Part shown: positions 10,084 to 52,796 of the stretch, piece after piece
Layout: the number at the start of each line of letters is the position of its first letter
Position numbering within the stretch: the stretch's first letter is position 1
NCBI GenBank assembly: GCA_964501135.1
Contig: CAZCRI010000001.1
Location: forward strand, 192,393-256,392
Reading direction: 5' to 3'
Length of the DNA: 64,000 bases
Source: an uncultured Candidatus Saccharibacteria bacterium
GTDB lineage: Bacteria > Patescibacteriota > CPR2 > UBA1875 > CAIMLA01
Notes under the pieces: model-generated
Told to the model about the DNA's origin: nothing
Seen by the model: only the letters and a program-made list of their open reading frames with translations
The model's database searches: none
Translations under genes and position numbers: made by a program

Positions 10084-10085
10084 CA

Positions 10086-13568: not shown

Positions 13569-13591
13569 TGGCGGACTACTTGGAGGGATTC

Positions 13592-25175: not shown

Positions 25176-25206
25176 TGAAAACAAGCACTTTTGTGCTTGT
25201 TTTAAG
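25176..25206 (+). terminator. Terminator hairpin AAACAAGCAC-tttt-GTGCTTGTTT, also present after giant gene 1
   Basis: 10-bp stem, followed by TTTAAGTTT. Confidence 0.65.
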
Positions 25207-25253
25207 TTTGGAAAAAGCCTAAAATTAATACATAAATGTAAGAGGGAGGGACC

Positions 25254-28200
25254 TTGGCCAAAAAGCCACGATTCCTGAAAGCTAGAAGCTATTGCAAGAA
25301 GGCAGTAAGTGCATGTTCTGCTATTTTTGGCTTGGCTATCGTTCGCGCTCTTACCTTCTTTATTGATAGGGCCAGAATCTGGCGGTTTGAGCTGATGTAT
25401 AAACTTCATCTCAAAGTTCGTTCGGTCCATGACAACTTGGTAATTAAGAATGTAATCTATAGAAAAGTCACTGAAAATAGGTATGCCATACCGGTGCGAA
25501 ACGCCTCGGTCTCGGCTTTCCTAGTTTCTCTGCTTCTCTTTACCTCTTTGCAGTACTTGTTGCCACTTCTAAATCCATTTAAGGCGACAGGGGTACAAGC
25601 TGGCAGTACAACTTATAATTGGCCGACAAACTCACCTTTTTCAAGCGCAGTTACCACCCCTAATATGGATTTTTCTACAACACCCAATAGCGCACAGCTT
25701 ACCAGAGGTTTGGATCACTATCTCGAAACCGGTACTGGTACAGATGGTTCTCTGACTGTCTCTAACCCCATGACAGTATGGAGAAATGGCGTTCAAGTCA
25801 CTAACGTTACAAGCTACAACATTAATACAGACAAATCTACTCCTAGTAGGGTTTGTAGTGAAGGCGGAGATGCTGTCAATTATTCTGTGACTGCGATTAC
25901 TCCTACAAGTGCAACACTATTAAATACTCCTGCGGCAAACTGTTTGGCAATGGGTGACGAAATACTACTTATTAATCTTAAGGGTACGCCCACTAATTAT
26001 GCCAATGTAGGTAATTATGAAACTTTTACTATTTCAAGTATATCGAGTAATGTAATAAACTTCTCAAGCGTAAAGACAAAATACTATGGAAATGATGGTG
26101 GTGATGCGAATATAGGCTCCACCATAAATGTCAATCAAATTGTAATGCTGCAAAGAGTACCAAATTATAGTTCTGTAAATGTTACTGGTACGTTAACTGG
26201 TAGCTCCTGGGACATAACTTATAAGAAAAACGGTGTTTTATTCTTTAGAAATACGGGTACAACTACAGTGAGTGGTGTTATCACTATGGATGGCAAAGGG
26301 TATTCTGGAGGTACGGTTGTAAATGGAGGCGAGGGATATAATGGAACTGGCGGTAATGGGGGCATTTATAATAGTGTTGGAAATATTGGTCAAGGCGGCG
26401 GGGGAGGAGGAGGTGGAAATACAAAAGCTGGTGGTCAAGGCACTACTGGATCAGGAGGTGGTGGGGGTGGTATAGGTCAAAATAGTTCCACCTGGTTTGG
26501 CGGCGGCGGCGGCGGTGGTGGCTATGGCACAGTGGGAACAGGTGGTTATTATAGTAATAGAATAGGTTCGCCTGGAAGTGGGAATCAGGGTGGTGCAGGA
26601 GTGTCAAGTAATAGTGGAATTGGCGCCAGTGGCGGTGGCGGAGGAATTTATGGTTCCTCAAGTACATTGAATAGTAAAATCTATTTTGGTTCGGGTGGCG
26701 GTGGAGGAGGAACTAGTGGTACCAGTGGGGGTCCCGGATACCCTGGTGGTTCGGGTGGTGGTATCATTCATATCGGTTCAAACAATATTACTGTTTCTGC
26801 TTCTGGGAATATTTCTGCAAAGGGAAGTAAGGGGGGTGATAATGGCACGGCCTATTGGTATGGTTCAGGAGGCGGGGGCGCTGGTGGGTCAGTTTATTTT
26901 TCTTCAAATTCTGTTAATAATTCTGGTACCGTGTCTGCTTCTGGTGGTACTGGGGGCGTAGGAAGTGCTGCTGCTAGTGCTGGTGGCACCGGTGGTTCAG
27001 GAAGAATTGGGATACAACATATTTCCACATCAACTTTCGGGACAATTTCACCCACCCCTACAAATATACAAATTGGTTCATTCACGGGTGTATACCAATA
27101 TGCGTCAAGCGGCAATATTGGAACGGCAGCAACAGATGCTGGTGGGTTGGTTCTTGATGCTGGTATTGGTAGGGCAATAAAGCCCTTTTCTCTCGATTGG
27201 TCTGCCGATACTACTATTAGCGGACAAAAAATATATTTTAAAGTTAGAACTGCGGCCCAATCTTCGGATCTTCACTCGGCGTCGTGCTATGGACCTGCGG
27301 GTAGTGATCCTACCTGCTCAGACTGGTCTACAGTTGGCACATATTTCTCTCAGGTAAACAGCGATGGTTCTATAACTACAAGCCCGTCTGAATTACCGGG
27401 ATCAATTTTAAGTACAATATTGCCGAATAGATATGTTGAAATATTAGTGTATATGGAGGTCGCAGAACGCTCTAGTAGTCCAGTTTTAACTAATCTTACA
27501 CTTTCCTATGATTCGTTAGATTACCCGTCTTATGACAAGTTATTACTATATAAATCTGATGCTTCTACGGTGCTTAAAAATTCATCTGGCTCAAATATTT
27601 CACTAGGTGCCGCAAATTCTGTTGGTGGGTATAACAATGAGTCGACAGTGGTACTTAAGGCTACAGATCTTACGTGTGGTACTGCTGCAAATGATAATTA
27701 TTGTTCAGGTTCAGTTTCTGGCTCTACATCACGTAAGCCCCAGGTTGAAGTGAGGGAAGTAGGTGCTGCCTTTGATGACACAACACTAGTAGAAGGGGCA
27801 AATTACTTTGCATCCGAAAGCACTTCCACTACCTCTACAGGCGAGCTTCAGTCTGGTCAAGTCTCTATAACAGGACTACAAACAGGCAAGCAATATCATG
27901 TAAGAGTTAGAATAGTAGATGCACAAAGCCGTGTATCTGCTTGGACGGCCTATGGAAATAATGCCGAGAGCGTAGCGGACTTTAGTATAGAACAGGATTC
28001 ACCCACACTGTCGACATTCACGATCAATTCAGGAGCATCCTACTCTAGCTCCTCCAATGTAACGCTAAACATTTCGGCTACCGATTCTGGTGGCTCAGGC
28101 CTTTCTCAAATGCAGTTCTCCAATAACGGAACAGACTGGGGTAAAACCGCTGATATTGACGGCAATATCACTGATACTGGCTGGGCAACTTATGCTACCA

Positions 28201-31200
28201 GTTACTCCTGGAATGTGGCAAAGGGTGTGGTAGATGGAGGTAGTGACACGGCTAGGACTGTGTATGCGAGAGTGAGAGATAATGCTGGGAATGTGAGCGG
28301 AAGGTTACACAACACAAAAGCTGATTTTGAGGGTAGTGGGTATCAAAAAGGCTTAGGAACAATAATAGCCGCAAACGGCACTCTCAGTTTACAAACCTTT
28401 AGCGGCTCGGAATCGGTTTCGTTAACAGGAACAGATGGGACAACTCGGACATATACGGGTGCTTCGGAGGTTAATGTTGGTTGGTCGGGTAGTTGTCCAA
28501 ATATTTCCATTAACATTGGCGGTGCCAGTGCTTACTCTGGGGGCGATGGTTCGGGCGCAACTGGGTGGATGAGTGGATCAACAACAACGGTTAGTTGCTA
28601 TGACGATACAGGTGAAAATAGTGCTTCAATAACCTTTAATATCTCGTTTAGGTCAACTCAGCTTCCTGTTTTTGATACCTATTCTTCACCAACAATAGCC
28701 TTGGGTACAGGGTCAACAGCAACCCAAATCGGTTGGGTTAACACTTCCGTTCCCGGTGATTCCTCGGTGAAATTTAAAGTCGCTACAAAAGACTCGGATA
28801 CCGGTTGGCAGACCTCCGACTTTATCGGCCCCGACGATACCGAAAACACCTTTTACGATATAAGTAGCGGCCAGAATCTTTCAACTCAGCATTTGAATAA
28901 AAGATATTTACGCTACAAAGCATTCTTATATTCGACATCAGATCGACTCCAAACACCTATCTTAGATTCAGTCAGTATTTACCAAGCTTTAGTCGCCACC
29001 ACTATTCTTGATACGCAGACACCTACAGGCACGGTGGCTATACGAGATTCTTCGTCTGGTTACGCCTTGAGCAAGAATGTGACCCTGAATCTTGAACCGA
29101 GTGACGCCGCACCATCATCGGGGCTAAAGGATTTTGCTCTTTCTAATGACGGAATCACTTGGTCCGGTTGGACAAATTGGAGTGAAACTTATCGGGCTGC
29201 AGGTGTGGGATATTCATGGACTTTAGCCGCTGGTGCTGATGGAACTCGAAATGTTTATGTGAAATATCGTGATAATGCTGGAAATGTAGGAGGTGTTAAT
29301 ATACCTGGGGATAATTGGACGCCTGGACAAGCTGAAACAGGGTACGCTACGGAGTTAGTGGGAAAATATGTTTACAATTTTGATGACCAATCATATCCGT
29401 ATCTTAAATGGAAATCGGATAGAGCTGATTGTAGCGGCAATCAATGTAGCAAGACAGCTTACCCTGCTCCTGATAGTTTTAATTCTCAAGCCAATGTACT
29501 TGTAAGTCCTCAGTTTAATCCAGGGGTTACATTTGGGACGGAATACCCAGCGCAGGAGGCTTGTAGTCTGATTGGTGGCCGTTTACCGAAGGTTAATGAA
29601 CTCAGGGCAATTTATGCAGGCAAGGTTGCTGGTCACTATAGTAACCTTGACGATTATTCATATTGGACTGCGACAGAGGTCCCTTGGAGCAGTGGCAATA
29701 GAACTTCGGCCTACTTGGTTCAATTTTATAATAACGGGAATCTTAGTTTCGATGTTAAAGATAGTACTATAGCAAGAACTAGGTGCGTTGCAGACGTTAC
29801 TCCTACAATAGGGGTTTCTGTCACACTTGACGTTTCCGGACCTGCCACCACTCTAAATATCAACCCGGCCACCCCAAATGGTGACAACGCTTGGTATAAA
29901 ATTGGTAAACCTACGGTTGCCTTTTCGTCCTCGGACAGTGCCTCGAAAACCGATAAAACATATTATGAATTTGTAACAACTGGCGCAGCTGCGCCAACGG
30001 TAGGTGCTTACACCAACACCCTAACCAACTCCGGGCAGGTTGACCCATATCAACCGTCTATACCTGTTGGTAATATACCAGAGGGGGATAACACACTGTA
30101 CTGGTATGCCGTAGACAAGGCGGGTAATGTAGAGAGCGTTCATAATCAGCAAATAAAGGTTGATATCCAAACACCTGCCACCACATATGTAATAGATCCT
30201 GAATTACCAAATGGCGACAACAACTGGTATACACTTACGGCGCCTACAATTACACTGAGCAGTAACGATCCCGGCACACCTAATTATTCTGGAGTGGCGA
30301 CACTTTACTACGCCTGGGAAACAGATACCAACCAAGCAGGTTGTACAGCACCGAAGTACTGGGAATCAAATGTAGGACGTTGCTTTAACGTCTACGCGGG
30401 AGCTTTTTCTCCGAATGATGGGAGCCACACACTGTATTATTTTTCGAAGGATAATGCTGGAAATGCCGATGCCGTTACTACAGAACAAATTTCCTACATT
30501 TCTCAGTTACCAAGCGTACCTTCGAATTTTCGGGCACCTGTGGGCGATCCAGAGACGGACGGCTCACACATTAAACTTTATTGGAATGCTTCAAGCTCGG
30601 TATCTGGCATTGTGGCTTATCAAATATTGAGGAAAAGGGAGATTGATAGCTGGGGCCAGCGCGATGCTACAATTGACTTACCGCTTCCGTTGAGTAATAC
30701 GATATACTTAGACTCGAACGAAACAACCACCCCAAATGGCTTGAATATTTTGGAAACTGGGCAACGGTATAACTATAAGATAAGGGCGCGTGATAATGCG
30801 GGGAACTGGGGCTCTTTCTCTACAGATAAACTGGGGTATACTGCAGACTTTATATCTCCGACACCAGTTACTGGAGTTTTGGCGGAAGCCTGTGACGGGA
30901 CACTTTATGACTCTCAAAATAGCCCAAATGGAAAATGTAGCGATATTGGCAACGAAGGGTTTGAGGTCAAGCTTACTTGGAATAGCTCAAACGACACTGG
31001 AGTTGGTATGTCCAAGTATATCATTTATCGTTCTACAACCAATTCGGCAGATGAAGCTGAGTGGCCAGTAGTGGGGGTGTTGGAATACGCTTCTGGGCAG
31101 GAGACCATTTGGTTTGATAATGACACCAATAACGCTGCTACTTTTACTACTGACAAACCTTCTGCTACCCCGATACTGAACGATTCAACCGATTATTATT

Positions 31201-34200
31201 ATCGTATCAGAGCTTTTGATAATACTGAATCAGGAAACCCAACAGCATTATTTCCGTCTGATCCTGGGCTCTTTCTTTCTAACTTTAGCTCTACTACAAC
31301 CCCTGATGTTACTGCACCGACCGTTCCAAGTAATGTTGTTGCTTCACCGCTTGGTCTTGACTCATCGGGCAGCCATCAGAAGGTTCATCTTACTTGGAGT
31401 GAGTCGAAGGATTACAGGCGACGCTCTAGTGATGAGGTAGCAGGGATTGTAAACTATAACGTTTACCAAGCTACCAATCCCGCAGGACCATATACCTTGG
31501 CGAGAACAACATCTGAGATTGTCATTGACCTAGATGGGTTAGATGAATTTACTAACTACTATTATGCAGTGGAATCATATGACAGTGTTCCGAATACCTC
31601 AGCTCGTTCTGACTCCGCTACGGCCCGGACAGCTTCCAACTCGGTACCAACAACTCCGACTGATGTAACAGTGACAACTAAGACGGGTGACCCTGCGACG
31701 GATTCACAGATCGGCCACAAAAACACCATTAGTTTTAATGGGTCTTATGCTAAAAATTGCCTGAACTCAGTTGGTTGTTTGACAAAGTATGAAGTCTATC
31801 GCTCCACGAATAATTATTCTGATTATCAGACATGGCTTACGAATGGAACAAAAATTGCTGAAGTAGCACCAGCTGATCTTCGGGATGACCGCACGGCGAC
31901 AGTACAGAACAATCAGGGTAATGTGGTTAGGAGCGAGCCTTATCAGGTGGTAGATACCGGCCAGATTTATCCGGCAACTTCTGCGAATGGGCTTACCAAC
32001 GCCACTACTTATTACTACAGGGTTTGGGCGCTGGATAATACACCTGATCCAGTAACTGGCGGAGTTTGCCCCGTGACCCTAGTAGGGGTTCAGTGTAATT
32101 ACCATTCACCAATGACGACAGTAGAAGTTGGTACACCACACGCTGGTTGGGACACGACTGCAGATGATGAAGCTCCTGCCTTACCGACCGAACTCAAGGT
32201 GAAGGACATTCATGATGACGGATACGCCTTTAAGCGCAATATTATTACCTGGGCGCGTATCGAAGACCCTCTCAGGAATGGCACGAATGACTTTTATGAA
32301 TACCGAATTTACCGATCAGATGATGGAGTTACTTGGGAACAAATATGTACCGATGGCACCAATCAATACCTGCAAGCAGAATGCGGCCTGCCGAATGAAA
32401 GTCATTACAATCCTCTTTTTAATGCGGATCAAGAACTAGGGCTCGCCACGAACTATTATATGGATTTGATACCAAATTCGTTGGCAAACCAATATTATTA
32501 TTATCACGTAACAGCAGTTGATAATGCTGGATCTAGTTTTCGCTATTCAAACGGCCAGGTGATAAATAAAGTTGGTAATGTGACTTACTCGAACGAGTCT
32601 GAACCTGCAAGAGACGGAAATGGTAACATCGTCTCTGAGTCGCTAAATCCGGCAATCGCAAAGCCTACGATTACAACAACGGGTGCCTTTGCACCAAGGA
32701 TGGTGAATGTAGGAGTCTCCTCGGCGAGTCTTCAGTGGTATGCCGATCAGCCGACAGACTCAGTGGTAGAGTTCAAGGCGGTATCAGATACAGAATGGAT
32801 TACGATAGGTGAGCGAGAGAAAAAGAACCCAGATACACCTCACGTTGTAAATCTTTTCGGTCTTAGACCAGCTACGGAATATGAATATAAACTCATTTCT
32901 AGAAATAGTTTAGGCAACGAGGACGTTCTCGGTGACCGGCAAGAAGAAAAGGTGACGGTCCCGAACTTTACAACCAATTCATTCACAGTCAACTATCAGG
33001 CCGATAAGATAGAGAAGTCCACAGTATCTATTAAGCTTTTCTGGACCACGAATATGCCTGCAAATACAAACATTGTCGAGTATAAGCTTAGCAACGGTGA
33101 CCAGACTGGTTCGACAGCGGAGACGCCAGTGAATCTAGATGCAATACCTAGTAACGGACGAAATTGTGCAGCGACGCCGTCGTTGTGTAATCACACCGTT
33201 ACTCTATCTCCACTCCGCGGAGCTAGTGAGTATACTTTCAAGATAAGGGCGATGTCACTTGATGGGTTCAATACCGAAACCTCTTTTCTTTCGTTTATCA
33301 CTGATAACGCCGATACTAGGCAATTTACGATGGTGCCCTCATCTTCGAACGTAGCTGATCGCAACATCACTGCTACTTCGGCACAGATTGTATGGCAAAC
33401 TGCAGTTCCGACCACGGCAATTGTTCACTTTGGGACTTCTAAATCTGGTCCATATGCTAGCACCGCTACAGACAGCGTCTTTAGCTCCTCACACGTGGTT
33501 GTTCTCGAGGGGTTAACCCCGGGCGAGACATATTACTATTGGGTGGAAGCTAAGGACATCAATAACTTGGTTTACTCTTCTCCGGAATACTCCTTTAAGG
33601 CTGTGCTTAAGCCAAAAATCTCTAACATGCAGCTCAAGAATGTAACACCATACGCCGTAACGATTGCCTGGGACACCAATATTGAGACAGAGACAGTTAT
33701 AAACTGGGGCAAGACAGCTGTTTATGGCGAGAAACGAGGGGTTTCTGGTCTAAGTAAAGTACATCAAGTGGTGATAGACAATCTGGAAGACAATCAGGAA
33801 TATCATTATCAGATCCTGGCTAAGGATGAGACGGGCAATGAAGTTGCAGATACTGACAAGATTGTTCGTACCCCCCTCGACACCGAGGGACCAAAGATTA
33901 CCAATGCCAAGACTGATATTCTCCCTATGGGTGAGAATGACACAACCGCATCAGTGATCATCTCTTGGAATACCAATAAACCAGCTACCACGCTCGTCGA
34001 GTATGATGAAGGTATCATCGGCGGCGGCTATGGTAACAGGTCTGTGGAGGACACTTCGCTAAATACTTCACACACCGTTATCATAAAGAACCTAAAGCCA
34101 GCATCCTCATTTCACTATCGTATGGTCTCTGCTGACAAGCGTAACAACATCACGCAGTCGCAGGACTACACCTTCGTCACACCGACGAAAGAAAAGTCCA

Positions 34201-34304: not shown

Positions 34305-34327
34305 CAATCAAGAATCTCTAAAATAGA

Positions 34328-34364
34328 GCTAAAACAAGCACGTTTTGTGCTTGTTTTAGCTCGG
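34328..34364 (+). terminator. Terminator hairpin GCTAAAACAAGCAC-gtttt-GTGCTTGTTTTAGC, same core as 25176-25206
   Basis: 14-bp stem plus a T-run. Confidence 0.7.
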
Positions 34365-34398
34365 GCAAAGTATTACAATTTATCTATAACTTGCGAGG

Positions 34399-37300
34399 GT
34401 GATGAAACCTAAAAAAGCTCAGCTAAATTCAGTGTGGAAACGAGCTACAAAGCTACTATCGAAAAGTAGTAATTTTAGGTTACGCAAAAGTTTTTTTACT
34501 CAAATTCCGTTGCGTTCACTATCCTTCGTCTGGTCACTCTTCAAACATATTATTTCTTTCCTAGCGAAGAACGTTATCTTGGTCCTTATAAATTTTATTG
34601 ATTATCTAGTAAAACTGCTCCAGATATTACGCTATGAGCTGACCTATAAATTCCACCTCAAGGTTCGCTCGGTACATGACACTTTGGTAATACGTGTGCC
34701 GGTTTACAAGAAGGTTACAGAACATCAGCTAGCTGTCCCAGTACGCAATGCAACTGTATCGGCTTTCTTCTGCTCATTAGCAATCTTTTTATCTCTCCAG
34801 TATGTACTGCCTCTTTTTAATCCGTTTGCCCCACAGGGAGCTCACGCGGGATCAAATAGTGCGACCTGGACCACAGATTCTGACTTTAATAACAATACAA
34901 TTACAACAAACACACCTACAACCAAGAATACAACAAATTTTGCAGGTACAGTTCTTGCCACAACCGGTAGTACTTCAGTTGTGGGCACGGGTACATCTTT
35001 TGCAGATTATCTGGATCCTTTTAATACTCCTAAGGCTATTAATATAGACGATGTTTCTTATGGTGTGGCTAGTGTGACCGACAATACCCATCTGACACTT
35101 ACTGCAAACTATCAAGGGACTACTGGCTCGGGGAAAACATTCACCTTTGATAATGTTGTAGTGAATGATGATGCCATAAGTCTACGTAAATATGGTCTCC
35201 CTGTAACTAAAACTTCAACTTTTACAGTTCCTAGCGGTGTCACGAAAATATATATTGACATGAAGGGTGGCGGAGGCGGTGGTGGTTCTACTGTTTATTC
35301 TGGAGGGAATTGCGGACAAGCCGGAGGCGCCGGGGGATACTCAGCGCTTAAGATTGATAACGGACTAGAATACTGGGCATTCGGCGGCGGCGGAGGTGGA
35401 GGAGGTTGCCCTAACTTTGTTGGGGCAACAGGCTCTCCTGGAACCTATAATCACCGAAACGTTCCCACCTTAATACCCGTTGATGGAGGGGCAAATAATG
35501 GAGGTATAGGGGGTTACTATGCAAGTACTAGCCGTGGAGGTAATGGTGGTGCGGGGGGCAGGATCACGGGCACATTGGCAGTCACTGGGGGTCAAGTTGT
35601 CACAATAACAAATGGTGCTGCAGGGGTTGGTGCTACTGGCCCAAGCGGATGGCCAAAGGTAAACGGAGCGAATGGATCCGCAGGCTCTGTAGAGGTACTG
35701 TATTACATCCCTGCATTTGCAGGAAATGGTAATATAACTGGCTTTAAAATTGATGCAGGGGCAGGACTTAAATATAAGTGGAGTTCCTTATCATGGGTTA
35801 CTGATGCCTTACCAAGTAATACATCGGTGAGGTTTAAATACAGAACATCAGACGACGGTTCCAGCTGGTCTGATTCTACCTGGTCACAAACAGGAACGGC
35901 ACAAATAACTGGTAGTTCAGGAGGAGCTTCTTTGACCAGTTTGAGTGCTTCCAGATACTTGGAACTTCAGCTGCTGCTGTATTCCGTAGACGGAGTCTAT
36001 TCCCCTAAGCTAAATGAGTTTATAGTACAGTACGATACCTTGGAAGCACCCTTAAATGAAAACCTATCGTTAACTGACATAAGTAATAACTCATTAAGAA
36101 CCACAACGGGTATGATTACAGACGTTCCGATCGAGACCACTTCTATACCGGCGGGGCATTCCAGATATGGAACTCCAAACACTTGGACAAATCAAGCTAC
36201 AGTAAGGCTTAAGGCAAACAACCTTACCTGCGGGAGTGGTGTGACGGCATGTACTGTTACTTCTACAAACCTAAGACCAGAAGTGGAGATAAAGCCTATT
36301 GTTAATGGGGTTCCAACGGCATTTACGGGCAGTGGAGTGACGGCAGATGAAGGCAAGACCTATGTCGATATTTCTGGTTTAGCTACAAACTCAGCCTACC
36401 ATATCCAAGTAAGAGCCGTGGATGGTCAGGCCAGAGCATCTGCCTGGGTGTCGTATGGAAATAACGGAGAGTCGGAACCAGATGTTACGGTAGAACAAAC
36501 GTCTCCCACCCTTCAGCTTAATGGTTTTGCGGATCAAGCTGGCAGTGATATTTTGGAAAAAGGAGGTGTGCTATACACCAGGAGTAATCAGGTAAAGATG
36601 AAGATTGGAACCTCTGACAATGGGGGTATACGTTCGAACCTTGCAAAAGTAATGATAACTAACAACCTCGACGACACAGGGTGGCAGGATGTTACGAATC
36701 AAATTACAAACTATCAGACACAGTATCTTGGACAATCATCGTTTACTGGGCTAGTACCCTGGACTCTTGAGGGCACGGACGGAGTAAAGACCGTTACTGT
36801 CAAAACTGTAGACAATGCTGGCAACGTCAGTGGACAGAGCATTGTGACTTCAACGGAGCTATCTACTACCGATAGTACTTTTGTGGTTTCTCCTGCAGGT
36901 AATGCGGGCGGCGCTGTAGTTGTAGATAATAAACTTCAGTTATCATCGACAACTAGTGGCGGAGTGGGTAGTTCGACTACCTCTGTATACCCAACAAATG
37001 ATGAAACTACATACTGGGATGAATGGTGCGGAGGCTGGTCATTGGATGAAAACCCAATGGGCACCAATTCTGGCTACGATAATGACTGTGGGAGTTGGGG
37101 GCAAGATGCGCACATTACCTTCAATAACGGTTTAGTTTCTGGTCTAACAAATGCAAGTATAAGGATTACCAGTAATGGTGATGCACTTACCTGGGTCTGG
37201 CATGATACGACAGGTACTTCTAATAGTGTTAATCTGACTACTAATACACCAAATTCACTAGATATCACGGCAATGGTCCAGGCAGATATTGCGAATGGTG

Positions 37301-40300
37301 ATACCTACACTGACGTGTGGGTAAACAACGGAATGGGTGTATATTCAATGGAGGATCCGATTCCTAGTTATAGGCCCCAATTAACACTAACAGCAAGTAC
37401 TCCAAGTACAACTACCTTTGACACACCAGAAACATTTACCTCTCGTATTCTCTATAGCGGTGCCACAAGTCCAGACTATAGTGCATTTACCACTAGTCAG
37501 ACAAATAACGGACAAACCATTTCATATCAGATGCGCTCGGGTAATAATGCCACTACTATCGATGGTTCGTGGGGCAGTTGGTACTCGGTAACGCCTGGTA
37601 GCTCTATAAATGCAAATCTTAGTGGCACGAACAGGGGTTATTTCCAGTACAAGGCAACTCTATCCACATCTAATCCGGCAGTTACACCAACTATCAGCAG
37701 TGTAACTGTGGCTGGTGCATATACGCCTCCTTCTGAAGGTACGGTGTATTCGGCGAATATCACTCTTGATCTTATTGGTCCGGCAACTTTTGATGTTTCT
37801 CTGCCAGCCGACAATACTTGGAGTGGCTCCAATAAGCCGACCCTAACCTGGACGGCCTCCCAGGATAATCCAGGGTCGGGACTGTATAAATATGAACTCT
37901 ACATGGATGGGGTACTTAAGAAAACCATTGATGACACTACCGTGGGGGCAACGGCAAACATCCTTAGCGCTACTCCTGGGAGTGACGTGTCATATACCTT
38001 ACAAACTGGCGAGGAATTATCGGAAAAGATGCATACTTGGTATGTGAAAGCATATGACAAGGCACTAAATACCGCCGATTCTACCAGGGGAGTCAGCAAC
38101 CCTTTCCATATTGGTTATGATAGCTCGCTTCCGAATACCGTGCCAACTACAGATATCTCGGCTCAGGCGTCTGGGTGGTTTACCACGAGCCCGCAAATCA
38201 CTCTTACGGCTACAGATCCAGGCGCAGGTGATGGTTCTGGTATCTCCGAGATTAAATATCGTTGGGATAATAGCGATCTGTCAACCGGTGCCACTACTTA
38301 TGCTTCGGCGATAAACATGTCGGCCACTATTGGAGACGGCACGCACGTTTTATATTTCCGCTCCAAGGATACTGCAGGAAACTATGAATCAGTAAAACAG
38401 CAGACCTACAAACTCGATACTATTAACCCAAACACAGATTATTCTATAAGTAACACTCCGCCGAACGGTGACAATGACTGGTACGTAGGAACTGCGCCTA
38501 CTATTTCGCTTACCCCGCATGATGAAGGAAGTGCGAACGCTTCGGGTGTGGCCACTACAAAATATCAGTGGGTCAACCATGGTGCTCAGCCAGGGGCAAC
38601 ATGGCTTACTGGCACTAGCTTTGCCGCATCGCTTGGGGATAAGACACTTTACTACTACTCTACAGACGTAGCTGGGAATGATGGTGCACAGTATGAGCAA
38701 CAACACGTAAAATTTGACAATGTGAGCCCTATTTCTCCGACTGGCTTTGATGCTCCCACAGATAGAGCGTATACGGATTCGATCTACCTCAAATGGAACG
38801 GCGTTACTGACACTTCAGGTGTCCAGACCTATCAGTTGAGAAGAAAAAAAGATAGCGATACCTGGAGCGGTTTGTCCGTTGTTGATTTGGGAGCTGTCGG
38901 GAATATAACCACCTATACAGATGCTAATGGTCTAGAAGCTGGCTATAAATATACTTATCAAATAAAAACCCAGGATAATGCAGGCAATTGGAGCGACGGC
39001 TGGTCGAGTGGTAACCCAGACCAGGTAGTTGGCTATACTATCGATACCGTAACGCCGACAGTCCCTAGTGGCGTCGTCGCGGCAGCTTGTGATGGATCCG
39101 GGGCTACGCTTGCGATCCCAGATACTGACCCGGCAGTGACCACGCCAATATGTACTAGTATTAGCAATAAGGGCTATGAAATCACGTTATCTTGGAAGCA
39201 AGCGGGTGATACGGGTGTGGGCCTTGGCGGATACAAGATCTACCGTTCGGCTGACGGCGATACTGCCGATGAGACCAAGTGGGTGATGGTAGGTGTGCTT
39301 CCTTGGACTGGCGCCGAGGTACTCAAGTGGAATGATAACAATACAAACAACTTAGCAACCTGGGACATTGGAACGTACCCAAGTACGCATCAGAAATCCG
39401 GACAACAGGCAGGGAAGACGGATCCTTCAGATCCATTGAGCGACTCTACCACTTACTACTATCGAGTCACCGCCTACGACGCTGTTAATAACGAGAGCGC
39501 ACTGTTCCCACCAATTTTCCCAGATCCAGACATGAACAGGACGGCTGCTGTGACCCCAGACGTTACCGCGCCTGGCTGGTTTGATGTACAGGGAAACCGA
39601 ATCAGTGACGCTGGCGTTTCTGCTGTGGCACTCGGCCTTGATGGTAGTAACCTCGATGACGAAAACATTGGTCATCAGCGAATAGTAGTAAGCTGGAACA
39701 CTGCTATCGACAAAAAACACAACGGGGATGTTCTCGAAGGTTCGGTACCTAGCTACGAACTATACCGCTCAGCGACTAGCTACCAAACTGACGGTGAGTG
39801 GCTTGCGAGTGCTACCAAACTTACACTGAGCCCAACTACGGCCGTGACCTACGAGGACAACGGGCTCGCTGACTCGACAGTTTACTATTATCGAGTGCTT
39901 ACCTATGACGTGAGCGCCAACAAATCAGACCTCTCCAGTCGGGAGGGGAGTGACCACGCCACTACCTATGATTCTAATATCCCATCAGCTCCGAGTGAGG
40001 TCCGTGTGTCGACGGCAAAGGGAGATCCTAACGTCGCAGACTCCCAAGTGGGAAACACGATAAACATTAGCTTTAAGGGAAGTAACTCCAAATATCGTGA
40101 AATTGTGAAGTACGAGGTTTATCGTTATGAAGCGGATACTAATAATCTTAGTAACAGCCAGTGGCTTGATAGTACGCAGACCACGAAACTCAAGATTTCC
40201 CACTCAGATAGTTGTGGTAGCAAGTGCGAGACCTATACGGCTGGGTCCTCAGGCGGCGACATCGAGATTACGGCGAATCAGGATGACCGCGATAATGAGT

Positions 40301-42621
40301 ACCGGATCCTAGATACGGGGCTTTCCGACGCTCATACCTACTTTTATCGAGTGAGAGCTCAGGACAACGCCTATGTTCCAAACGAACCAGAGCAAAGCTA
40401 TCGTTTCGGGCCACTTTCAAACATTTCTCCGCTGGATTCGAACGAAGCGGCTAGATTCGGTTGGGACACGACTCCTGACGCCACTGCTCCAGACATCAGT
40501 GCGAGCGACCTTGCTCTTTCCGTAAAAGACACACACCCTAGTGACACTTGGCTCCGTAACGTTGTCACTTGGAGAGTGGCAGACAAGACAAAAATCATTC
40601 GCCGGAAACAACTTGGCTCAGGATGCACGACCGTACTCACCGTTGGTAGCACGGAGTATTGCACAGATTTTGCTAGATATGAAATTCATCGTGAGGTTTA
40701 CGATCAAACCGATGTTCTTATCCCTGAGATGAATGAGACCTTTACATTTACCGATATTAATACCAATATTTTGGTGGATTCCGTTGCGGTGGCATATAAA
40801 TCTGACAAATTTAAGTATTATATGGTAATAGTCGATAATGCAGACACAGAATATAGGTACGCAAACGGTACGGTGATTAATAAGAGTGGGTCTACAACGA
40901 ATGTTCCAAATATGACCAGTAAAATATATTGGAATGGTTCTATTACTCCTGAGAAGTCCCATGCCGTGATTGACAGTGTTGCTCTAAGTGGTGTTGGGGT
41001 ATCAAGCGCCACGGTTACCTGGCATACTGATCAAAGTACGGACTCGTTGGTTGAATATAGGCCAATGAAAAAAGTTTCGGGCAATTGGGTCGTAGATGAT
41101 AGCTCGAGTAACCAGTTTGTAGCAGTAGGCCATAGGGAGACTGATGTAAACCATTCGGTATATATTTTTGGGATGAAACCGGAAACTAGATACGAATATC
41201 GGGTAATCTCGAAGAACTATCCATTTGCCAACGAAACGGTGGTTTCTACTGGTTTACCAGAGCTAGTGACGAAGGGATTTATCATTACCTATATTCCTTC
41301 GCCAGAGAATGTTTCTACTGTATCGGCTGACATTCGTTGGACGACTAATATGCCTTCGAATTCGAATATGGTAGAGTATCGCGAAAGTAATGGTAGCCAG
41401 AATGGCGCCATGGCAGAGACTCCTCTCAAGTCCGAAGAGATTACGAATGAGATGAAGGATTGTGTAGCAAATCCGGCCTCGCCGCTCTGTACGCACTCTG
41501 TAACGTTGTCACCTTTGAAGAAAAATACTGAATATACAATAAATATTGTCTCGATTTCGCTTGATAATTATACTTCAACTTCTGGTTTACAGCGTTTTAC
41601 TACCGCCAATTCTGATTCAAAACAATTTACAATTGCTCCATCTGCTTCTAATGTTGCTGAACGAAACATCACCTCTACATCAGCCCAGATTGTCTTCCAG
41701 ACTTCAGAGGCAACGACAGCGACTCTGTATTATGACACAGACAGTGGTGCACCAAACTATGATCCAAAAGACTACAAACAGACCGCTACAGATGCAATGA
41801 AGGGAACTACTCATGCAATTCTGCTAGATGGTCTAGAGCCGGGGAAGAAATACTTCTACGTTGTTAAAGTAGATAATGGTCTCTTGTCTTACACCTCTCC
41901 AGAGGCCTCATTTACCGCCGTCCTTAAACCGAAGATTTCGAACCTAAAGATTTCTGATGTGAAGCCATACTCCTTTAGTATCACCTGGGATACCAATATT
42001 GATACCGAGACCCTGATAAACCTAGGTACAAGTGCTAACTACACCGAAAAGCGCGGCAAATCTGGCCTTACCAAGGTTCACGAACTCTTAGTTGACGGCC
42101 TACAGGATAATACTGAGTACCACTACCAAATTCTAGCCAAGGATGAGACGGGTGAAGAGGTAGCTAGTGGTGATTCAGCAGTCCGTACGCCACTTGATAC
42201 CGAAGGCCCTAAGATTACTGGAGTGAAGGTGGATATCTTGCCAATGGGAGAGAGTGACGCCACTTCTTCAATCATTGTTTCATGGCAGACTAACAAACCG
42301 GCCTCAACACTGGTAGAATATGACCAGGGTATCATTGGCGGTACCTATAATAGTCGCTCGGTAGAAGATAGCACTTTGAATAATTCCCACACTGTAATTA
42401 TCAAAGGTCTCGCACCAGCCTCCTCTTATCGCTATCGTCTGATATCGAAGGATAAACGGCAGAATACCACTATTTCACAGGACTACACCTTCGTAACGCC
42501 GACAAAAGAAAAATCCATCCTACAGCTCATCTTAAAGTCACTCGAGGAAACCTTCGCTTGGACGAAGAACCTCAATCAATTCTTTGGTAATGTTGGTAAA
42601 AGATTAACAGGTGGGAAGTAA
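34399..42621 (+). CDS. Giant cell-surface protein 2 (2740 aa), a paralog of giant protein 1 with a divergent central region
   Basis: Shared N-terminal block (ELTYKFHLKVRSVHDTLVI...PVRNATVSAF...LQYVLPLFNPF) and shared C-terminal Fn3 array ending ...TPTKEKSILQLILKSLEETFAWTKNLNQFFGNVGKRLTGGK. Gly-rich region and Ig-like repeats. Confidence 0.8.
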   Translation: MMKPKKAQLNSVWKRATKLLSKSSNFRLRKSFFTQIPLRSLSFVWSLFKHIISFLAKNVILVLINFIDYLVKLLQILRYELTYKFHLKVRSVHDTLVIRVPVYKKVTEHQLAVPVRNATVSAFFCSLAIFLSLQYVLPLFNPFAPQGAHAGSNSATWTTDSDFNNNTITTNTPTTKNTTNFAGTVLATTGSTSVVGTGTSFADYLDPFNTPKAINIDDVSYGVASVTDNTHLTLTANYQGTTGSGKTFTFDNVVVNDDAISLRKYGLPVTKTSTFTVPSGVTKIYIDMKGGGGGGGSTVYSGGNCGQAGGAGGYSALKIDNGLEYWAFGGGGGGGGCPNFVGATGSPGTYNHRNVPTLIPVDGGANNGGIGGYYASTSRGGNGGAGGRITGTLAVTGGQVVTITNGAAGVGATGPSGWPKVNGANGSAGSVEVLYYIPAFAGNGNITGFKIDAGAGLKYKWSSLSWVTDALPSNTSVRFKYRTSDDGSSWSDSTWSQTGTAQITGSSGGASLTSLSASRYLELQLLLYSVDGVYSPKLNEFIVQYDTLEAPLNENLSLTDISNNSLRTTTGMITDVPIETTSIPAGHSRYGTPNTWTNQATVRLKANNLTCGSGVTACTVTSTNLRPEVEIKPIVNGVPTAFTGSGVTADEGKTYVDISGLATNSAYHIQVRAVDGQARASAWVSYGNNGESEPDVTVEQTSPTLQLNGFADQAGSDILEKGGVLYTRSNQVKMKIGTSDNGGIRSNLAKVMITNNLDDTGWQDVTNQITNYQTQYLGQSSFTGLVPWTLEGTDGVKTVTVKTVDNAGNVSGQSIVTSTELSTTDSTFVVSPAGNAGGAVVVDNKLQLSSTTSGGVGSSTTSVYPTNDETTYWDEWCGGWSLDENPMGTNSGYDNDCGSWGQDAHITFNNGLVSGLTNASIRITSNGDALTWVWHDTTGTSNSVNLTTNTPNSLDITAMVQADIANGDTYTDVWVNNGMGVYSMEDPIPSYRPQLTLTASTPSTTTFDTPETFTSRILYSGATSPDYSAFTTSQTNNGQTISYQMRSGNNATTIDGSWGSWYSVTPGSSINANLSGTNRGYFQYKATLSTSNPAVTPTISSVTVAGAYTPPSEGTVYSANITLDLIGPATFDVSLPADNTWSGSNKPTLTWTASQDNPGSGLYKYELYMDGVLKKTIDDTTVGATANILSATPGSDVSYTLQTGEELSEKMHTWYVKAYDKALNTADSTRGVSNPFHIGYDSSLPNTVPTTDISAQASGWFTTSPQITLTATDPGAGDGSGISEIKYRWDNSDLSTGATTYASAINMSATIGDGTHVLYFRSKDTAGNYESVKQQTYKLDTINPNTDYSISNTPPNGDNDWYVGTAPTISLTPHDEGSANASGVATTKYQWVNHGAQPGATWLTGTSFAASLGDKTLYYYSTDVAGNDGAQYEQQHVKFDNVSPISPTGFDAPTDRAYTDSIYLKWNGVTDTSGVQTYQLRRKKDSDTWSGLSVVDLGAVGNITTYTDANGLEAGYKYTYQIKTQDNAGNWSDGWSSGNPDQVVGYTIDTVTPTVPSGVVAAACDGSGATLAIPDTDPAVTTPICTSISNKGYEITLSWKQAGDTGVGLGGYKIYRSADGDTADETKWVMVGVLPWTGAEVLKWNDNNTNNLATWDIGTYPSTHQKSGQQAGKTDPSDPLSDSTTYYYRVTAYDAVNNESALFPPIFPDPDMNRTAAVTPDVTAPGWFDVQGNRISDAGVSAVALGLDGSNLDDENIGHQRIVVSWNTAIDKKHNGDVLEGSVPSYELYRSATSYQTDGEWLASATKLTLSPTTAVTYEDNGLADSTVYYYRVLTYDVSANKSDLSSREGSDHATTYDSNIPSAPSEVRVSTAKGDPNVADSQVGNTINISFKGSNSKYREIVKYEVYRYEADTNNLSNSQWLDSTQTTKLKISHSDSCGSKCETYTAGSSGGDIEITANQDDRDNEYRILDTGLSDAHTYFYRVRAQDNAYVPNEPEQSYRFGPLSNISPLDSNEAARFGWDTTPDATAPDISASDLALSVKDTHPSDTWLRNVVTWRVADKTKIIRRKQLGSGCTTVLTVGSTEYCTDFARYEIHREVYDQTDVLIPEMNETFTFTDINTNILVDSVAVAYKSDKFKYYMVIVDNADTEYRYANGTVINKSGSTTNVPNMTSKIYWNGSITPEKSHAVIDSVALSGVGVSSATVTWHTDQSTDSLVEYRPMKKVSGNWVVDDSSSNQFVAVGHRETDVNHSVYIFGMKPETRYEYRVISKNYPFANETVVSTGLPELVTKGFIITYIPSPENVSTVSADIRWTTNMPSNSNMVEYRESNGSQNGAMAETPLKSEEITNEMKDCVANPASPLCTHSVTLSPLKKNTEYTINIVSISLDNYTSTSGLQRFTTANSDSKQFTIAPSASNVAERNITSTSAQIVFQTSEATTATLYYDTDSGAPNYDPKDYKQTATDAMKGTTHAILLDGLEPGKKYFYVVKVDNGLLSYTSPEASFTAVLKPKISNLKISDVKPYSFSITWDTNIDTETLINLGTSANYTEKRGKSGLTKVHELLVDGLQDNTEYHYQILAKDETGEEVASGDSAVRTPLDTEGPKITGVKVDILPMGESDATSSIIVSWQTNKPASTLVEYDQGIIGGTYNSRSVEDSTLNNSHTVIIKGLAPASSYRYRLISKDKRQNTTISQDYTFVTPTKEKSILQLILKSLEETFAWTKNLNQFFGNVGKRLTGGK

Positions 42622-42623: not shown

Positions 42624-43055
42624 ATGCAGCTCGATTCTAGTAACATACAGCCACAAAATATCGAAACCCCTGTAGTGAGTGGGGAAAATAATGTAGATCG
42701 ACCCCTAGGGACACAGGTAACCCCAGAGATAGCTGCCGAAGCAATACCGGCCACACCGGCGCCAGTAAATCCGGCTGCGGCCGCAGCTCCTATGGACGAT
42801 GCAGCCATATTGGCGAGTGATGACATTAACCCGAGTGACGACACTGCTGCTATTCCTCCAGTTGCCGAGCCTCAGGAGTTTGATGACACGGTGGAACTTA
42901 AGGGGGATGAACAGTATATCTCGGCGATCAAGAAAGTGATTCAAGAAGAGGCCGAAGAGCCTTTTCGAGAAGAAATGGATTCCGAAAAATTGCAAAAAGG
43001 TTATTTGAAGGAACGTTTTGGGGTCGATGTTGATATCGAGGAGGAGGCGAAGTAA
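42624..43055 (+). CDS. Hypothetical acidic low-complexity protein (143 aa)
   Basis: Starts 3 nt after giant gene 2. Pro/Ala/Glu/Asp-rich. No TM. Confidence 0.45.
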   Translation: MQLDSSNIQPQNIETPVVSGENNVDRPLGTQVTPEIAAEAIPATPAPVNPAAAAAPMDDAAILASDDINPSDDTAAIPPVAEPQEFDDTVELKGDEQYISAIKKVIQEEAEEPFREEMDSEKLQKGYLKERFGVDVDIEEEAK

Positions 43056-43057
43056 CT

Positions 43058-52375: not shown

Positions 52376-52796
52376 GAACGATATTGACGAAATACAGAGG
52401 GTTATCGGAACCTTAAATTTAAATGAGGCGCAGCAAGAAGAGTTGAATGACTTGTTACGTGAGAAGGACTATCTGGGTGCTATTGATAAGATTGATTTTT
52501 ACCTCCAGTTAGAGATTCGCAACCTAGACACGCTTGAGAGGTTTAGGGTAGAGGCGGCGGATAAGGTTCCAAGGGATATCGAAGACGGTAATGCGGTCGT
52601 TCAGAATGTCCAGAAAGCAGCCAAGCTAGCAAATTACTATCTTGAAAATGCGTTGCAACAAGAAGAAGAGGCCGAAGACCAGGCAATTGTTCTGGCGACA
52701 GAGCAGGTGGCGGCTGACTACCTCAAGTTACGAGAAAAGATATTCAGAGATGCGGATGAGGCTGAAATTGAAAAAGTTAAAGATAAGTTAAGATAG
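52359..52796 (+). CDS. Hypothetical acidic coiled-coil protein (145 aa)
   Basis: Overlaps the upstream gene by 17 nt. Followed by the gyrA RBS. Confidence 0.45.
   Translation: MMELNKNDIDEIQRVIGTLNLNEAQQEELNDLLREKDYLGAIDKIDFYLQLEIRNLDTLERFRVEAADKVPRDIEDGNAVVQNVQKAAKLANYYLENALQQEEEAEDQAIVLATEQVAADYLKLREKIFRDADEAEIEKVKDKLR

Follow-up and report, generated by a model that had tools for sequence, protein, structure and literature searches.

What do two giant genes standing in tandem on the genome of a presumably episymbiotic bacterium encode, and do their products act together with the type IV secretion-type ATPase encoded behind them? The window, i.e. the whole stretch of DNA that was analysed, comprises 64,000 nucleotides of an uncultured Candidatus Saccharibacteria bacterium. 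From its sequence the genes had been predicted to code for diversifying host-attachment proteins with conserved ends and variable centres. According to our best reading they encode Sec-exported, adhesin-like fibres with recombining heads, whose function we infer, and belong to a lineage-restricted, multi-copy family of giant surface fibres in a Saccharibacteria-type Patescibacterium. For this explanation as a whole we estimate a probability of about 60%.

Gene structure and family

The open reading frames were found exactly as claimed, with 3016 and 2740 aa, together 17.3 kb or 27% of the window (Table 1). Both are intact. Their description as paralogues was confirmed by mutual comparison, in which they are collinear along the full length. 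GGGAGGG is located five nucleotides upstream of the TTG start codon of gene 1. For gene 2 the ATG at 34402 is probably the true start, because the orthologue JTS_3 begins with MKPRKAQLN. The genes neighbouring the giants are pheST, ldt, the ATPase gene and gyrBA. The hairpin element between ldt and gene 1 also precedes JTS_1 in L001, and a 47-nt repeat (D5) spans 25189-25235 and 34343-34389.

Table 1 Features of the two giant genes and their surroundings (positions in the window; aa, amino acid positions in the protein)
Feature	Position	Strand	Remarks
Hairpin AAAACAAGCAC-TTTT-GTGCTTGTTTT	25177-25206	+	Between ldt and gene 1; two-way stem resembling a terminator, with A and T runs on either side
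Gene 1	25254-34304	+	3016 aa; TTG start
Gene 1, pre-sequence, aa 1-116	25254-25601	+	Ends VQA/GS
Gene 1, head module, aa ~155-610	25716-27083	+	Beta-rich domain, then Gly-rich beta-helix-like region
Gene 1, neck, aa 641-1020	27174-28313	+	Common to all family members; one Fn3 and one Ig-like (Big_7) unit
Gene 1, DUF1566/C-type-lectin-like module, aa 1351-1500	29304-29753	+	Weak significance
Gene 1, Ig-like repeats, aa 1501-1770	29754-30563	+	Bear D-x-A-G-N motifs
Gene 1, Fn3 stalk	30561-34178	+	4-5 Fn3 at aa 1770-2270; five purple-acid-phosphatase-N-type Fn3 at aa 2485-2975
Gene 1, C-terminal tail, aa 2980-3016: KEKSILQLILKSLEETFAWTKNLNQFFGNIGKRITGKK	34191-34301	+	Amphipathic, not transmembrane
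Hairpin, second copy	34326-34362	+	Between gene 1 and gene 2; 16-bp stem
Gene 2	34399-42621	+	2740 aa
Gene 2, pre-sequence, aa 1-150	34399-34848	+	Ends AHA/GS
Gene 2, head cassette, aa ~166-1120	34894-37758	+	Replaced relative to JTS_3; Gly-rich at aa ~285-470, family neck at aa ~463-813
Gene 2, conserved stalk, aa 1137-2699	37807-42495	+	Big_13/Ig-like units and nine Fn3; 80-99% identity to JTS_3
Gene 2, C-terminal tail, aa 2704-2740	42508-42618	+	
Neighbouring operon, judged to be outside the system	42624-47547	+	143-aa acidic protein, 820-aa ATPase, 676-aa helical protein

Members of the giant family were detected at nine loci in four Saccharibacteria-type MAG species, with three to five or more copies in each genome. 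The most closely related MAGs bear the label Candidatus Saccharibacteria or Patescibacteria. The TM7905 probe site does not match the 16S gene at the two discriminating bases, and no conclusion on taxonomy was based on it. The 256-kb contig of the window probably carries a third member (P0003). Common to all members are a pre-sequence of 100-185 aa, about ten Fn3 domains and a nearly invariant C-terminal tail of 37 aa; relatives carry RCC1 heads. A second conserved site of family members adjoins a type IV pilus cluster. In a metagenome scan with the stalk of gene 2 no relative above 35% identity was detected. bAvd-like genes precede P0020 (L015), a distant giant bearing the tail.

Domain content of the stalk

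The predicted C-terminal array of purple-acid-phosphatase-N-type Fn3 domains is real. Pur_ac_phosph_N (PF16656) matched four to five stretches in gene 1 and gene 2 with E values of 6e-28 and 7e-34, and fn3 (PF00041) matched with 1e-14 and 7e-21, respectively. With a family-specific HMM about ten Fn3 units were detected per protein, five of them within the last ~500 aa. A high mutual similarity had been claimed for the whole array of ~730 aa. This applies to the last ~240 aa (68-73% identity), including 92% in the last 37 aa, but not to the remainder, which is 32-51% identical.

As expected from the original prediction, the content is of adhesive or structural type, with Fn3, Ig-like and lectin-like domains in the two proteins and RCC1 in relatives. 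No peptidase, glycoside hydrolase or other enzyme domain was found in the domain searches, and Pfam scans revealed neither RHS/YD or FHA repeats nor toxin domains. RTX repeats gave no Pfam match and T1SS genes are not present nearby.

N-terminal pre-sequence

Both genes were described to start with the same unusual N-terminal block, regarded as a shared anchor. The block is indeed shared, with 49-53% identity across 103-118 aa, and no further copy exists elsewhere in the window. Its role as an anchor is doubtful, because the residues at -3 and -1 form a small-x-Ala site in all 14 aligned members (V, A, S or T at -3, Ala at -1). The site lies ~10 aa past the hydrophobic core and is directly followed by a conserved mature N-terminus. 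In gene 1 a basic N-terminus comes first; an optional initial hydrophobic stretch, the conserved block ELxYxxHLxxRxxHD...VYKK, the core at aa ~86-106 and the site itself follow in this order. Likewise, the basic n-region and the hydrophobic h-region, the latter long with about 18-21 aa, occur in 14/14 members. Furthermore, a Peptidase_S26 signal peptidase is encoded by a related genome. Judged from this residue pattern, the block has the appearance of a long Sec signal subject to cleavage and need not be an anchor.

With the first 130-167 aa no match to Pfam and NCBIfam was obtained at E<=0.1-0.5, and the models for the ESPR, YSIRK and KxYKxGKxW signal regions did not match the pre-sequences of either gene. 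The resemblance to these extended signals would be one of function only, drawn by analogy.

The topology would be reversed if, as the term shared anchor implies, the pre-sequence remained uncleaved as a type II signal-anchor. The head would then be membrane-proximal, and the Fn3 array and the tail would be distal and bind a partner. An uncleaved anchor is possible, therefore, given a core longer than a typical signal-peptide h-region and a c-region of about 10 aa. Conservation of the cytoplasmic part of the pre-sequence, as observed, would be unusual if the peptide were discarded, membrane-anchor features are missing from the tail, and docking onto a conserved partner is conceivable for an invariant distal tip. 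However, the small-x-Ala residues are kept precisely where cleavage by signal peptidase I is expected, and it is hard to see why a stalk of 1,600 aa should be conserved outside a variable base. The ligand-binding, fast-evolving parts of fibrous adhesins are normally distal. In addition, the first hydrophobic stretch is missing in some members, so that only one membrane segment is constant. We regard the signal-anchor as possible, if somewhat unlikely, and prefer export by a cleaved signal.

Invariant C-terminal tail

Across in-register pairs 26-37 of the 37 tail residues are identical. The codon identity between genomes, 0.34-0.64, equals that of the flanking sequence, i.e. synonymous sites are saturated. 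Purifying selection on the tail at the protein level is thus indicated. A nucleotide-level element in the tail was ruled out by the same saturation. Only gene 1 and gene 2 share codons here (29 of 34 identical, versus 0.35 upstream), which therefore points to a short conversion tract; the tract of JTS_1 and JTS_2 is longer.

At least 51 of the best 150 cluster representatives end in the tail motif. It is amphipathic (muH 0.32-0.52), its mean hydrophobicity is low at about 0, and its end is rich in K/R. Searches with the motif in Pfam, NCBIfam and PDB yielded nothing significant. An anchoring role of the tail is a guess, since it contains neither a transmembrane segment nor LPXTG or another known sorting motif.

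Heads, Gly-rich regions and lectin-like module

The Gly-rich segments of GGGGGGG type described for both genes were recovered as runs of G5-G8 at aa 381-486 of gene 1 and aa 290-336 of gene 2. Similarity between the two Gly-rich regions is not significant after composition correction. The DNAGN-type motifs are present as well; D-x-A-G-N occurs six times in gene 1 and five times in gene 2.

None of the other 14 family members possesses the head module of gene 1. Its identity to the 144 copies in the 120 giant Patescibacteria, RHS and LamG proteins listed is ~45%. Judged by these matches, the head is a Gly-rich module foreign to the family and common in ~100 unrelated giant Patescibacteria proteins. 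An AF2 model (pLDDT 75.5, pTM 0.82) showed its best fold match to a prasinovirus 'PA14 domain' protein (TMq 0.53, E 2e-19). In the PDB the matches were weak: phage tailspikes and depolymerases reached TM ~0.14 over 146-222 columns, too low to be meaningful. A phage origin of this head was rejected, as no tblastn match was found in 50,697 phage records. The head of gene 2 (aa 151-480) gave no database match at E<=1e-5 and nothing useful in Pfam or PDB, and the cassette around it is nearly free of Pfam matches.

These head matches bear on the question whether the giants are weapons or enzymes, that is, contact-dependent polymorphic toxins (RHS/CdiA-like) or stalked depolymerases of host cell walls or capsules. 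Proteins with RHS repeats and LamG giants share the head module of gene 1, tailspike depolymerases are its best PDB fold matches, and a role in degrading cell walls has been associated with giant proteins of other ultra-small bacteria (bioRxiv 10.1101/2023.11.21.568195). Nevertheless, the tailspike scores are too low to count, and the domain searches described above found no RHS, toxin, peptidase or glycoside hydrolase domain in either protein. In polymorphic toxins the C-terminus is variable and followed by an immunity gene, whereas in the giants it is the most conserved part. Such a toxic or degrading activity is very unlikely, and we prefer the reading as adhesin-like fibres.

A DUF1566/C-type-lectin module was reported for gene 1 only. 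Gene 2 has no counterpart, but the assignment of the module to Lcl_C (PF07603; aa ~1351-1500) is weak, with 17 bits against a cut-off of 34.9 (E 0.007-0.008), i.e. below the gathering score. Lcl_C matched two of the seven copies of the lectin-like module in the family. With a profile of the family copies, PDB matches to 8q4e 'HbP1' (E 5e-4) and to intimin (1e5u/1f00, E 2-3e-3) were obtained, and the alignment runs through the motif C..GGRLP..EL..Y...YW..TE. An AF2 model built from three sequences was unusable (pLDDT 35).

Variation between genomes

For gene 2 and its positional orthologue JTS_3 the identity is 72-75% in the pre-sequence, 19-41% at aa ~166-1120 and 80-99% at aa 1137-2740. The head is replaced between sharp boundaries at aa ~165 and ~1120 of gene 2; so clean a cassette swap was seen in one orthologue pair, gene 2 and JTS_3. 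Between gene 1 and JTS_1 the identity amounts to 85% in the first 100 aa; it is 19-56% in the middle and reaches 75-96% in the last 240 aa.

Both comparisons bear out that the central regions are not as conserved as the termini. Of the expected layout with conserved ends and a variable centre, the ends and the variability of the interior hold across genomes, but the variable part is the N-proximal third. On the alignments, the variation appears as an N-proximal head undergoing cassette replacement and not as diffuse central hypervariability. A DGR as driving force of the diversification was considered, in view of the bAvd-like genes in front of P0020, and rejected, since neither a template/variable repeat nor a reverse transcriptase was found in the window: the scanned ORFs contain no reverse transcriptase, and no long imperfect repeat involves the lectin-like region.

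Neighbouring ATPase operon

The position of the giants directly upstream of a type IV secretion-type ATPase had been emphasized. The 820-aa membrane-anchored protein encoded downstream is indeed a VirD4/TraD/HerA-type ATPase (TrwB_AAD_bind E 1.7e-8, TIGR03743 E 2e-11), and DUF8128 was found in its homologues. A functional link is not supported, because in three related genomes (L012, L013 and L014) the operon of small protein, ATPase and ~678-aa protein occupies the same site between ldt and gyrB without a giant gene. L012 is on the same contig as the family member P0002, about 100 kb apart. Conversely, seven family loci have no adjoining ATPase. The giants and the operon thus occur independently of each other.

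A type IV secretion-like machine, powered by the adjacent VirD4-like ATPase, could be imagined to export the giants as substrates or to contain them as components, with the basic tail as secretion signal. C-terminal signals are frequent on known type IV substrates, and the tail ends in K/R-rich residues. The 143-aa ORF begins only 2 nt past the stop codon of gene 2, the ATPase gene follows directly, and four genomes retain the arrangement giant, small protein, ATPase. Against this stand, besides the separate occurrence, the probable Sec-type signals on the giants. Pfam scans of 36 ORFs of the window revealed neither VirB4, VirB6 or VirB2 nor any further type IV component. Patescibacteria possess the ATPase family almost universally (>3,400 matches); it is mostly unlinked to virB4 and non-essential for epibiotic growth of S. 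epibionticum (PMC12102498). We consider a type IV route extremely improbable, and a tempting but unsupported link of the giants to type IV secretion is now removed.

Proposed mechanism

In the preferred reading, that of Sec-exported fibres, the long pre-sequence would steer the unfolded chain through Sec and signal peptidase I would probably cut it off. The mature chain would begin with the motif S-N-x-K-T-W-T-T-x-x-D-F-x-N-N, followed by a variable head of ~500-1,000 aa. Behind the head would come the family-wide neck, changing Ig-like and lectin-like modules, a stalk of roughly ten Fn3 domains and the amphipathic tail of 37 aa. The tail may hold the fibre at the cell envelope or join several fibres to a common partner. 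Consequently, the variable head would be the distal end that contacts the ligand. Diversity may arise by tandem duplication and by recombination in which the conserved 5' and 3' ends stay in place and the head, or almost the entire interior, is exchanged, so that each genome would gain its own repertoire of tips. The likeliest role would be attachment to glycans or proteins of the host-cell surface.

A multi-copy family with variable exposed tips and a conserved base also fits evolution as phage receptors or decoys. The fibres might then form a non-adhesive coat, an S-layer- or glycocalyx-like brush whose outer part is shaped by avoidance of phages or predators. Yet heads of the lectin-like, RCC1 and Ig-like types are modules that typically bind ligands, and genes of 3,000 aa in low copy number are unlikely means of building a complete coat. 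Moreover, the second conserved site of family members adjoins the type IV pilus cluster, and a link of pili to host contact is reported for Saccharibacteria (PMC11623550). A coat function is unlikely, and attachment remains our preferred role.

As a tentative and rather doubtful extension, the pre-sequence and the tail (T-P-x-K-E-K-S-I-L-Q-L-I-L-K-S-L-E-E-T-F-A-W...) might be two halves of an undescribed export-and-anchoring route and at the same time serve as homology arms. Naturally competent cells could use them to pass head cassettes or entire interiors from one paralogue or strain to another, which would result in a switch of host specificity.

The family provides concrete candidates for the way in which ultra-small Patescibacteria recognise and hold particular hosts. 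The presumably distal modules differ between sister genomes, and the parts for export and the base are fixed.

Comparison with known systems

Several known systems share parts of this architecture. Serine-rich repeat proteins with KxYKxGKxW signals, YSIRK proteins such as Ebh/Embp and large autotransporters with ESPR are likewise huge fibres; as proposed for the giants, they combine a long signal peptide whose N-region is conserved with a distal region for binding and a stalk of repeats. The giants differ from these Gram-positive adhesins and autotransporters in lacking a signal-motif match, LPXTG and a C-terminal transmembrane anchor, and their pre-sequence is longer (100-185 aa). The RTX/T1SS adhesins SiiE, LapA and MpIBP also possess a stalk of many beta-sandwich domains and, at one end, ligand-binding modules including lectin-like ones. 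In contrast to them, the giants lack RTX repeats as well as neighbouring T1SS genes, carry a probable N-terminal Sec-type signal and come from a monoderm-like organism.

The lectin-like module of gene 1 has C..GG(R/K)LP..EL in common with intimin/invasin and Legionella Lcl, whose C-type-lectin-like or DUF1566 binding domains stand on stalks of Ig-like or collagen-like type. It aligns to the intimin CTLD and to 8q4e and is placed on an Ig-like stalk. In gene 1, however, the module is internal instead of terminal, and with a score below the Pfam threshold its fold is putative. Omnitrophota giant 'dockerin-type' proteins (West-Roberts et al. 2023, preprint) fall into classes of >10,000-30,000 aa with dockerin, discoidin or SecA-like domains and many transmembrane segments, and no sequence relationship to gene 1 or gene 2 was seen. 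Like the latter they are giant multi-domain extracellular proteins of ultra-small host-dependent bacteria, for which attachment was proposed.

A further comparison, made by description only, is with the surface proteins SEML1_0890/0891 of Ca. Southlakia epibionticum (Wang et al. 2023, PMC10633639), which bear Fn3 and VCBS/lectin-like domains. The portion of that paper available to us describes no long conserved pre-sequence, invariant tail, tandem giants or head swapping for these proteins. They match the giants in phylum, presumed lifestyle and envelope modules of Fn3 and lectin type, and are proposed as adhesins for host glycans. The bacterium is naturally competent, and surface proteins with Fn3 and lectin-like domains are reported there to be essential for its epibiotic growth (PMC10633639).

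Genes and genomic setting

The tandem giant surface-protein genes g1 and g2 are uninterrupted ORFs (see table). Comparison with the orthologue points to the ATG at 34402 as the probable true start of g2. The GC content of the g1/g2 region (44-50%) is similar to that of the remaining window, which is chromosomal DNA of a small-genome bacterium and includes typA, pyrG, rmuC, pheST, ldt, gyrB, gyrA and a complete bacterial 16S rRNA gene (Rfam RF00177, 1522 bits). The nearest public genomes are MAGs labelled 'Candidatus Saccharibacteria' or 'Patescibacteria group'. No 23S gene follows the 16S gene within the window, the next gene being an F420-ligase-like ORF, and no tRNA gene was found across the whole 64 kb, which indicates an unlinked rRNA gene. 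Two acidic, helical ORFs (863 and 145 aa) without transmembrane segment and without Pfam or NCBIfam match lie between gyrB and gyrA; in the related genomes L004, L008 and L012 gyrA directly follows gyrB. A 30-nt GC-rich palindromic repeat, TCGGGATCCCGAC...GTCGGGG, is present in two intergenic copies (83% identical).

The 94-nt gap between g1 and g2 contains a 16-bp hairpin, and another copy is located between the upstream L,D-transpeptidase gene (ldt) and g1. This hairpin, AAAACAAGCAC-N4/5-GTGCTTGTTTT, precedes every tandem-array giant in two genomes and is extended by a 47-nt repeat (72% identity). It may represent a terminator that was carried along in each duplication, or else a recombination landmark.

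Coordinates of the features in the window and in loci of related genomes (L001-L015)
Feature	Sequence	Position	Strand	Remarks
g1	window	25254-34304	+	3016 aa; TTG start preceded by GGGAGGG Shine-Dalgarno
g2	window	34399-42621	+	2740 aa
Hairpin copies	window	25177-25206, 34326-34362
Hairpin copies	L001	9926-9948, 18786-18807		locus of JTS_1
Hairpin copy	L003	~11140-11170
47-nt repeat	window	25189-25235, 34343-34389
863- and 145-aa ORFs	window	49784-52796	+
Palindromic repeat	window	57389-57418, 63928-63957
554-aa Fn3 surface protein	window	57426-59090	+
16S rRNA gene	window	60830-62288	+
F420-ligase-like ORF	window	62393
Small protein + ATPase unit	L012, L013, L014	about 9300-14500 in each
Split family member	L006	2428-10963		MAG ELA653
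Second chromosomal site	L007	11587-20630
bAvd/23S_rRNA_IVP-type genes	L015	1165-4037		precede P0020

Conserved ends

In a global alignment g1 and g2 are collinear from end to end. Identity amounts to 42-48% over the first ~150 aa and 16-47% in the interior, with a minimum of 16-29% at g1 aa ~1024-1600. The initial portion of the C-terminal Fn3 array is 33-51% identical, and the values reach 68-73% over the final 240 aa and 92% over the final 37 aa, the tail. The high mutual similarity originally ascribed to the ~730-aa array holds for its last ~240 aa, but not for its full length. Within the tail 29 of 34 codons are common to both genes, against a fraction of 0.35 upstream, which indicates a gene-conversion tract of ~110 nt. 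A longer tract was found between JTS_1 and JTS_2, two giants of the sister genome JTS-AC303 (GCA_041738615.1). Between genomes, the tail residues are identical despite codon identity at background (0.34-0.64). Hence, the tail is conserved at the protein level. Its nearly invariant sequence, T-P-x-K-E-K-S-I-L-Q-L-I-L-K-S-L-E-E-T-F-A-W-T-K-N-L-N-Q-F-F-G-x-x-G-K-R-x-T-G, is amphipathic, not a transmembrane helix, and has no match in Pfam, NCBIfam or PDB. The tail may retain the fibre by association with the membrane surface or by docking to a conserved partner.

The pre-sequence comprises a basic start, an optional first hydrophobic stretch, the conserved block E-L-x-Y-x-x-H-L-x-x-R-x-x-H-D ... 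V-Y-K-K, a hydrophobic core of ~18-21 aa and, about 10 residues on, a small-x-Ala site (Ala at -1 and V/A/S/T at -3 in 14/14 members). Next to this site stands the conserved motif (G/S)-S-N-x-K-T-W-T-T-x-x-D-F-x-N-N, beyond which similarity collapses. Judged by its sequence, the pre-sequence is built like a Sec signal peptide carrying a signal-peptidase-I site, but has a length of 100-185 aa. It would guide Sec-dependent, probably co-translational export, with cleavage at small-x-Ala; a Peptidase_S26 is encoded in a related genome. In contrast, the 554-aa Fn3 surface protein of the window combines a classical signal peptide of ~30 aa with a C-terminal transmembrane helix and Lys-rich anchor. 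This protein shows the ordinary anchoring mode of the organism, which the giants do not use.

Domain content

Purple-acid-phosphatase-N-type and generic Fn3 domains were identified in g1 and g2 with Pfam. A family-trained HMM detected ten Fn3 units in each protein: one in the neck, a family-wide segment, four in the mid-stalk and five at the C-terminus. D-x-A-G-N motifs are borne by Ig-like units (Big_13, Big_7). This Fn3/Ig stalk would fold outside the cell. Sequence searches against Pfam, NCBIfam and PDB gave essentially no match for the first 780 aa of g1 and aa 150-1136 of g2, and no enzymatic domain in either protein.

A lectin-like module had been noted in g1 only. A weak DUF1566/Lcl_C match was obtained at g1 aa 1351-1500 (17 bits, cut-off 34.9); the module has no copy in g2, and several relatives have it in up to three copies. 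Via the motif C..GGRLP..EL, a profile built from seven family copies matched both PDB 8q4e (E 5e-4) and the C-type-lectin-like domain of intimin (E 2e-3). AF2 gave no usable model of the g1 module. Considering the score below cut-off, the profile matches and the AF2 result, we grade the module as probably lectin-like.

Variable heads

The locus of JTS-AC303 is syntenic with the window (flanking proteins 78-96% identical) and carries three tandem giants. Between g2 and its positional orthologue JTS_3, identity is 72-75% in the pre-sequence, 19-41% from aa ~166 to ~1120 and 80-99% from aa 1137 to the end. The swap boundaries are sharp: one lies where the mature N-terminal motif ends, the other where an Fn3-like domain starts. 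Thus, of the predicted layout with conserved head and tail and variable centre, the conserved ends and variable interior stand, but the part replaced between g2 and JTS_3 is N-proximal and cassette-like. For g1 and JTS_1 conservation is confined to 100 aa at the start (85%) and 240 aa at the end (75-96%). JTS_2 carries an RCC1 head, and the window contains no equivalent of it. These comparisons show that copy number and head content vary between close relatives, while export and base parts are kept. The sequence pattern is one of segments replaced through recombination rather than of diffuse hypermutation.

No DGR signature was found in the window. Two bAvd/23S_rRNA_IVP-type genes lie in front of P0020, a distant giant (4492 aa) with the tail. 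Some members of this gene family are accessory proteins of diversity-generating retroelements; the listing of this 23-kb contig shows no reverse transcriptase.

Residues 151-480 of g2 matched nothing in a large protein database at E<=1e-5. Within the family, aa ~150-290 match ELA_L011, and the Gly-rich part matches ELA_L008, JTS_2 and P0002. Hence, the g2 head shows a mosaic pattern. Residues ~155-370 of g1 and the Gly-rich stretch to ~610 have no match in any other family member. The g1 head is ~45% identical to 144 copies among 120 listed matches. These are giants (1.7-4.7 kaa) of Patescibacteria and, in a few cases, Chloroflexota; many contain RHS or LamG domains, and the module is often present two or three times per giant. 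The AF2 model (18-sequence alignment, pLDDT 75.5, pTM 0.82) predicts a beta-rich N-domain followed by a short-strand, beta-helix-like Gly-rich part. Foldseek against PDB returned trivial matches only (phage tailspikes, TM ~0.14). Among viral models the top match was a prasinovirus 'PA14 domain-containing protein' (TMq 0.53, E 2e-19), and no sequence match was found in phage genomes. The g1 head is a mobile, putatively ligand-binding surface module.

The variable head would be displayed and bind host surface structures, and duplication, together with recombination between the conserved ends, would renew the repertoire. Natural competence, documented for cultivated Saccharibacteria (PMC10633639), would make such renewal easy.

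Neighbouring ATPase

The original prediction noted the position of the giants directly upstream of a type IV secretion-type ATPase. A link to type IV secretion is not supported, the ATPase operon being present without giants in three related genomes (L012-L014). There, the order is rmuC, pheS, pheT, ldt, small protein, ATPase, large protein (not in L014), gyrB, gyrA. Thus, the window giants sit at an insertion point in a conserved housekeeping block, independent of the ATPase. One giant-less ATPase locus is on the same contig as the family member P0002. The 820-aa ATPase has a single N-terminal transmembrane helix and a VirD4/TraD/HerA-type P-loop domain; its family (DUF8128 and TrwB_AAD_bind domains) is very widespread in Patescibacteria with more than 3,400 matches. 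With a ~130-aa small protein it forms a unit conserved between ldt and gyrB in Saccharibacteria-type genomes, which appears to be a core module unrelated to virB4 clusters. The ATPase is followed by a large unannotated protein (587-678 aa) in L012 and L013 and by a Lyase_1 gene in L014. VirD4-like genes of Patescibacteria are mostly unlinked to virB4, and that of S. epibionticum is not essential for epibiotic growth (PMC12102498). Given the 2-nt gap, g2 is probably co-transcribed with the operon; this is not evidence of shared function.

Family and comparison with known systems

A scan of one genome per species, with patterns from the penultimate Fn3 domain only, revealed nine family loci in four MAGs, with several copies per genome. 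Only three relatives with the full architecture, P0001-P0003, emerged from the large-database search. Including P0003, the genome of the window probably has at least three members. When the last 250 aa were used for an exhaustive HMM search, the tail motif was found to terminate at least 51 of the best 150 cluster representatives; hence, the tail-bearing superfamily is much wider than four genomes. Family copies other than the window giants are found elsewhere in the genomes, several adjoining a type IV pilus cluster (pilM, pilB, pilT). A second conserved chromosomal site (L007; also L009, L010, L011) has the order giant, ychF (minus strand), 862-aa SurA_N/PKD protein, pilM, pilB, pilT. A frameshift divides one ELA653 member into ORFs of 2550 and 347 aa, which overlap; the shorter one carries the tail. 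This reflects either a pseudogene or an assembly error.

In kind, the family belongs to the giant modular adhesin-like surface proteins. Giant modular adhesins are known in Gram-positives (Ebh/Embp, SRRPs) and Gram-negatives (SiiE, LapA). Fn3/lectin surface proteins of this class are known in Saccharibacteria (PMC10633639). The family belongs neither to the LPXTG nor to the RTX adhesins, nor to the ESPR/YSIRK/KxYKxGKxW signal families, and g1 and g2 are members neither of the RHS family nor of the DGR-target families. Its distinguishing features are the long pre-sequence with its conservation, a tail that is both amphipathic and invariant, and the swap of heads seen between sister genomes.
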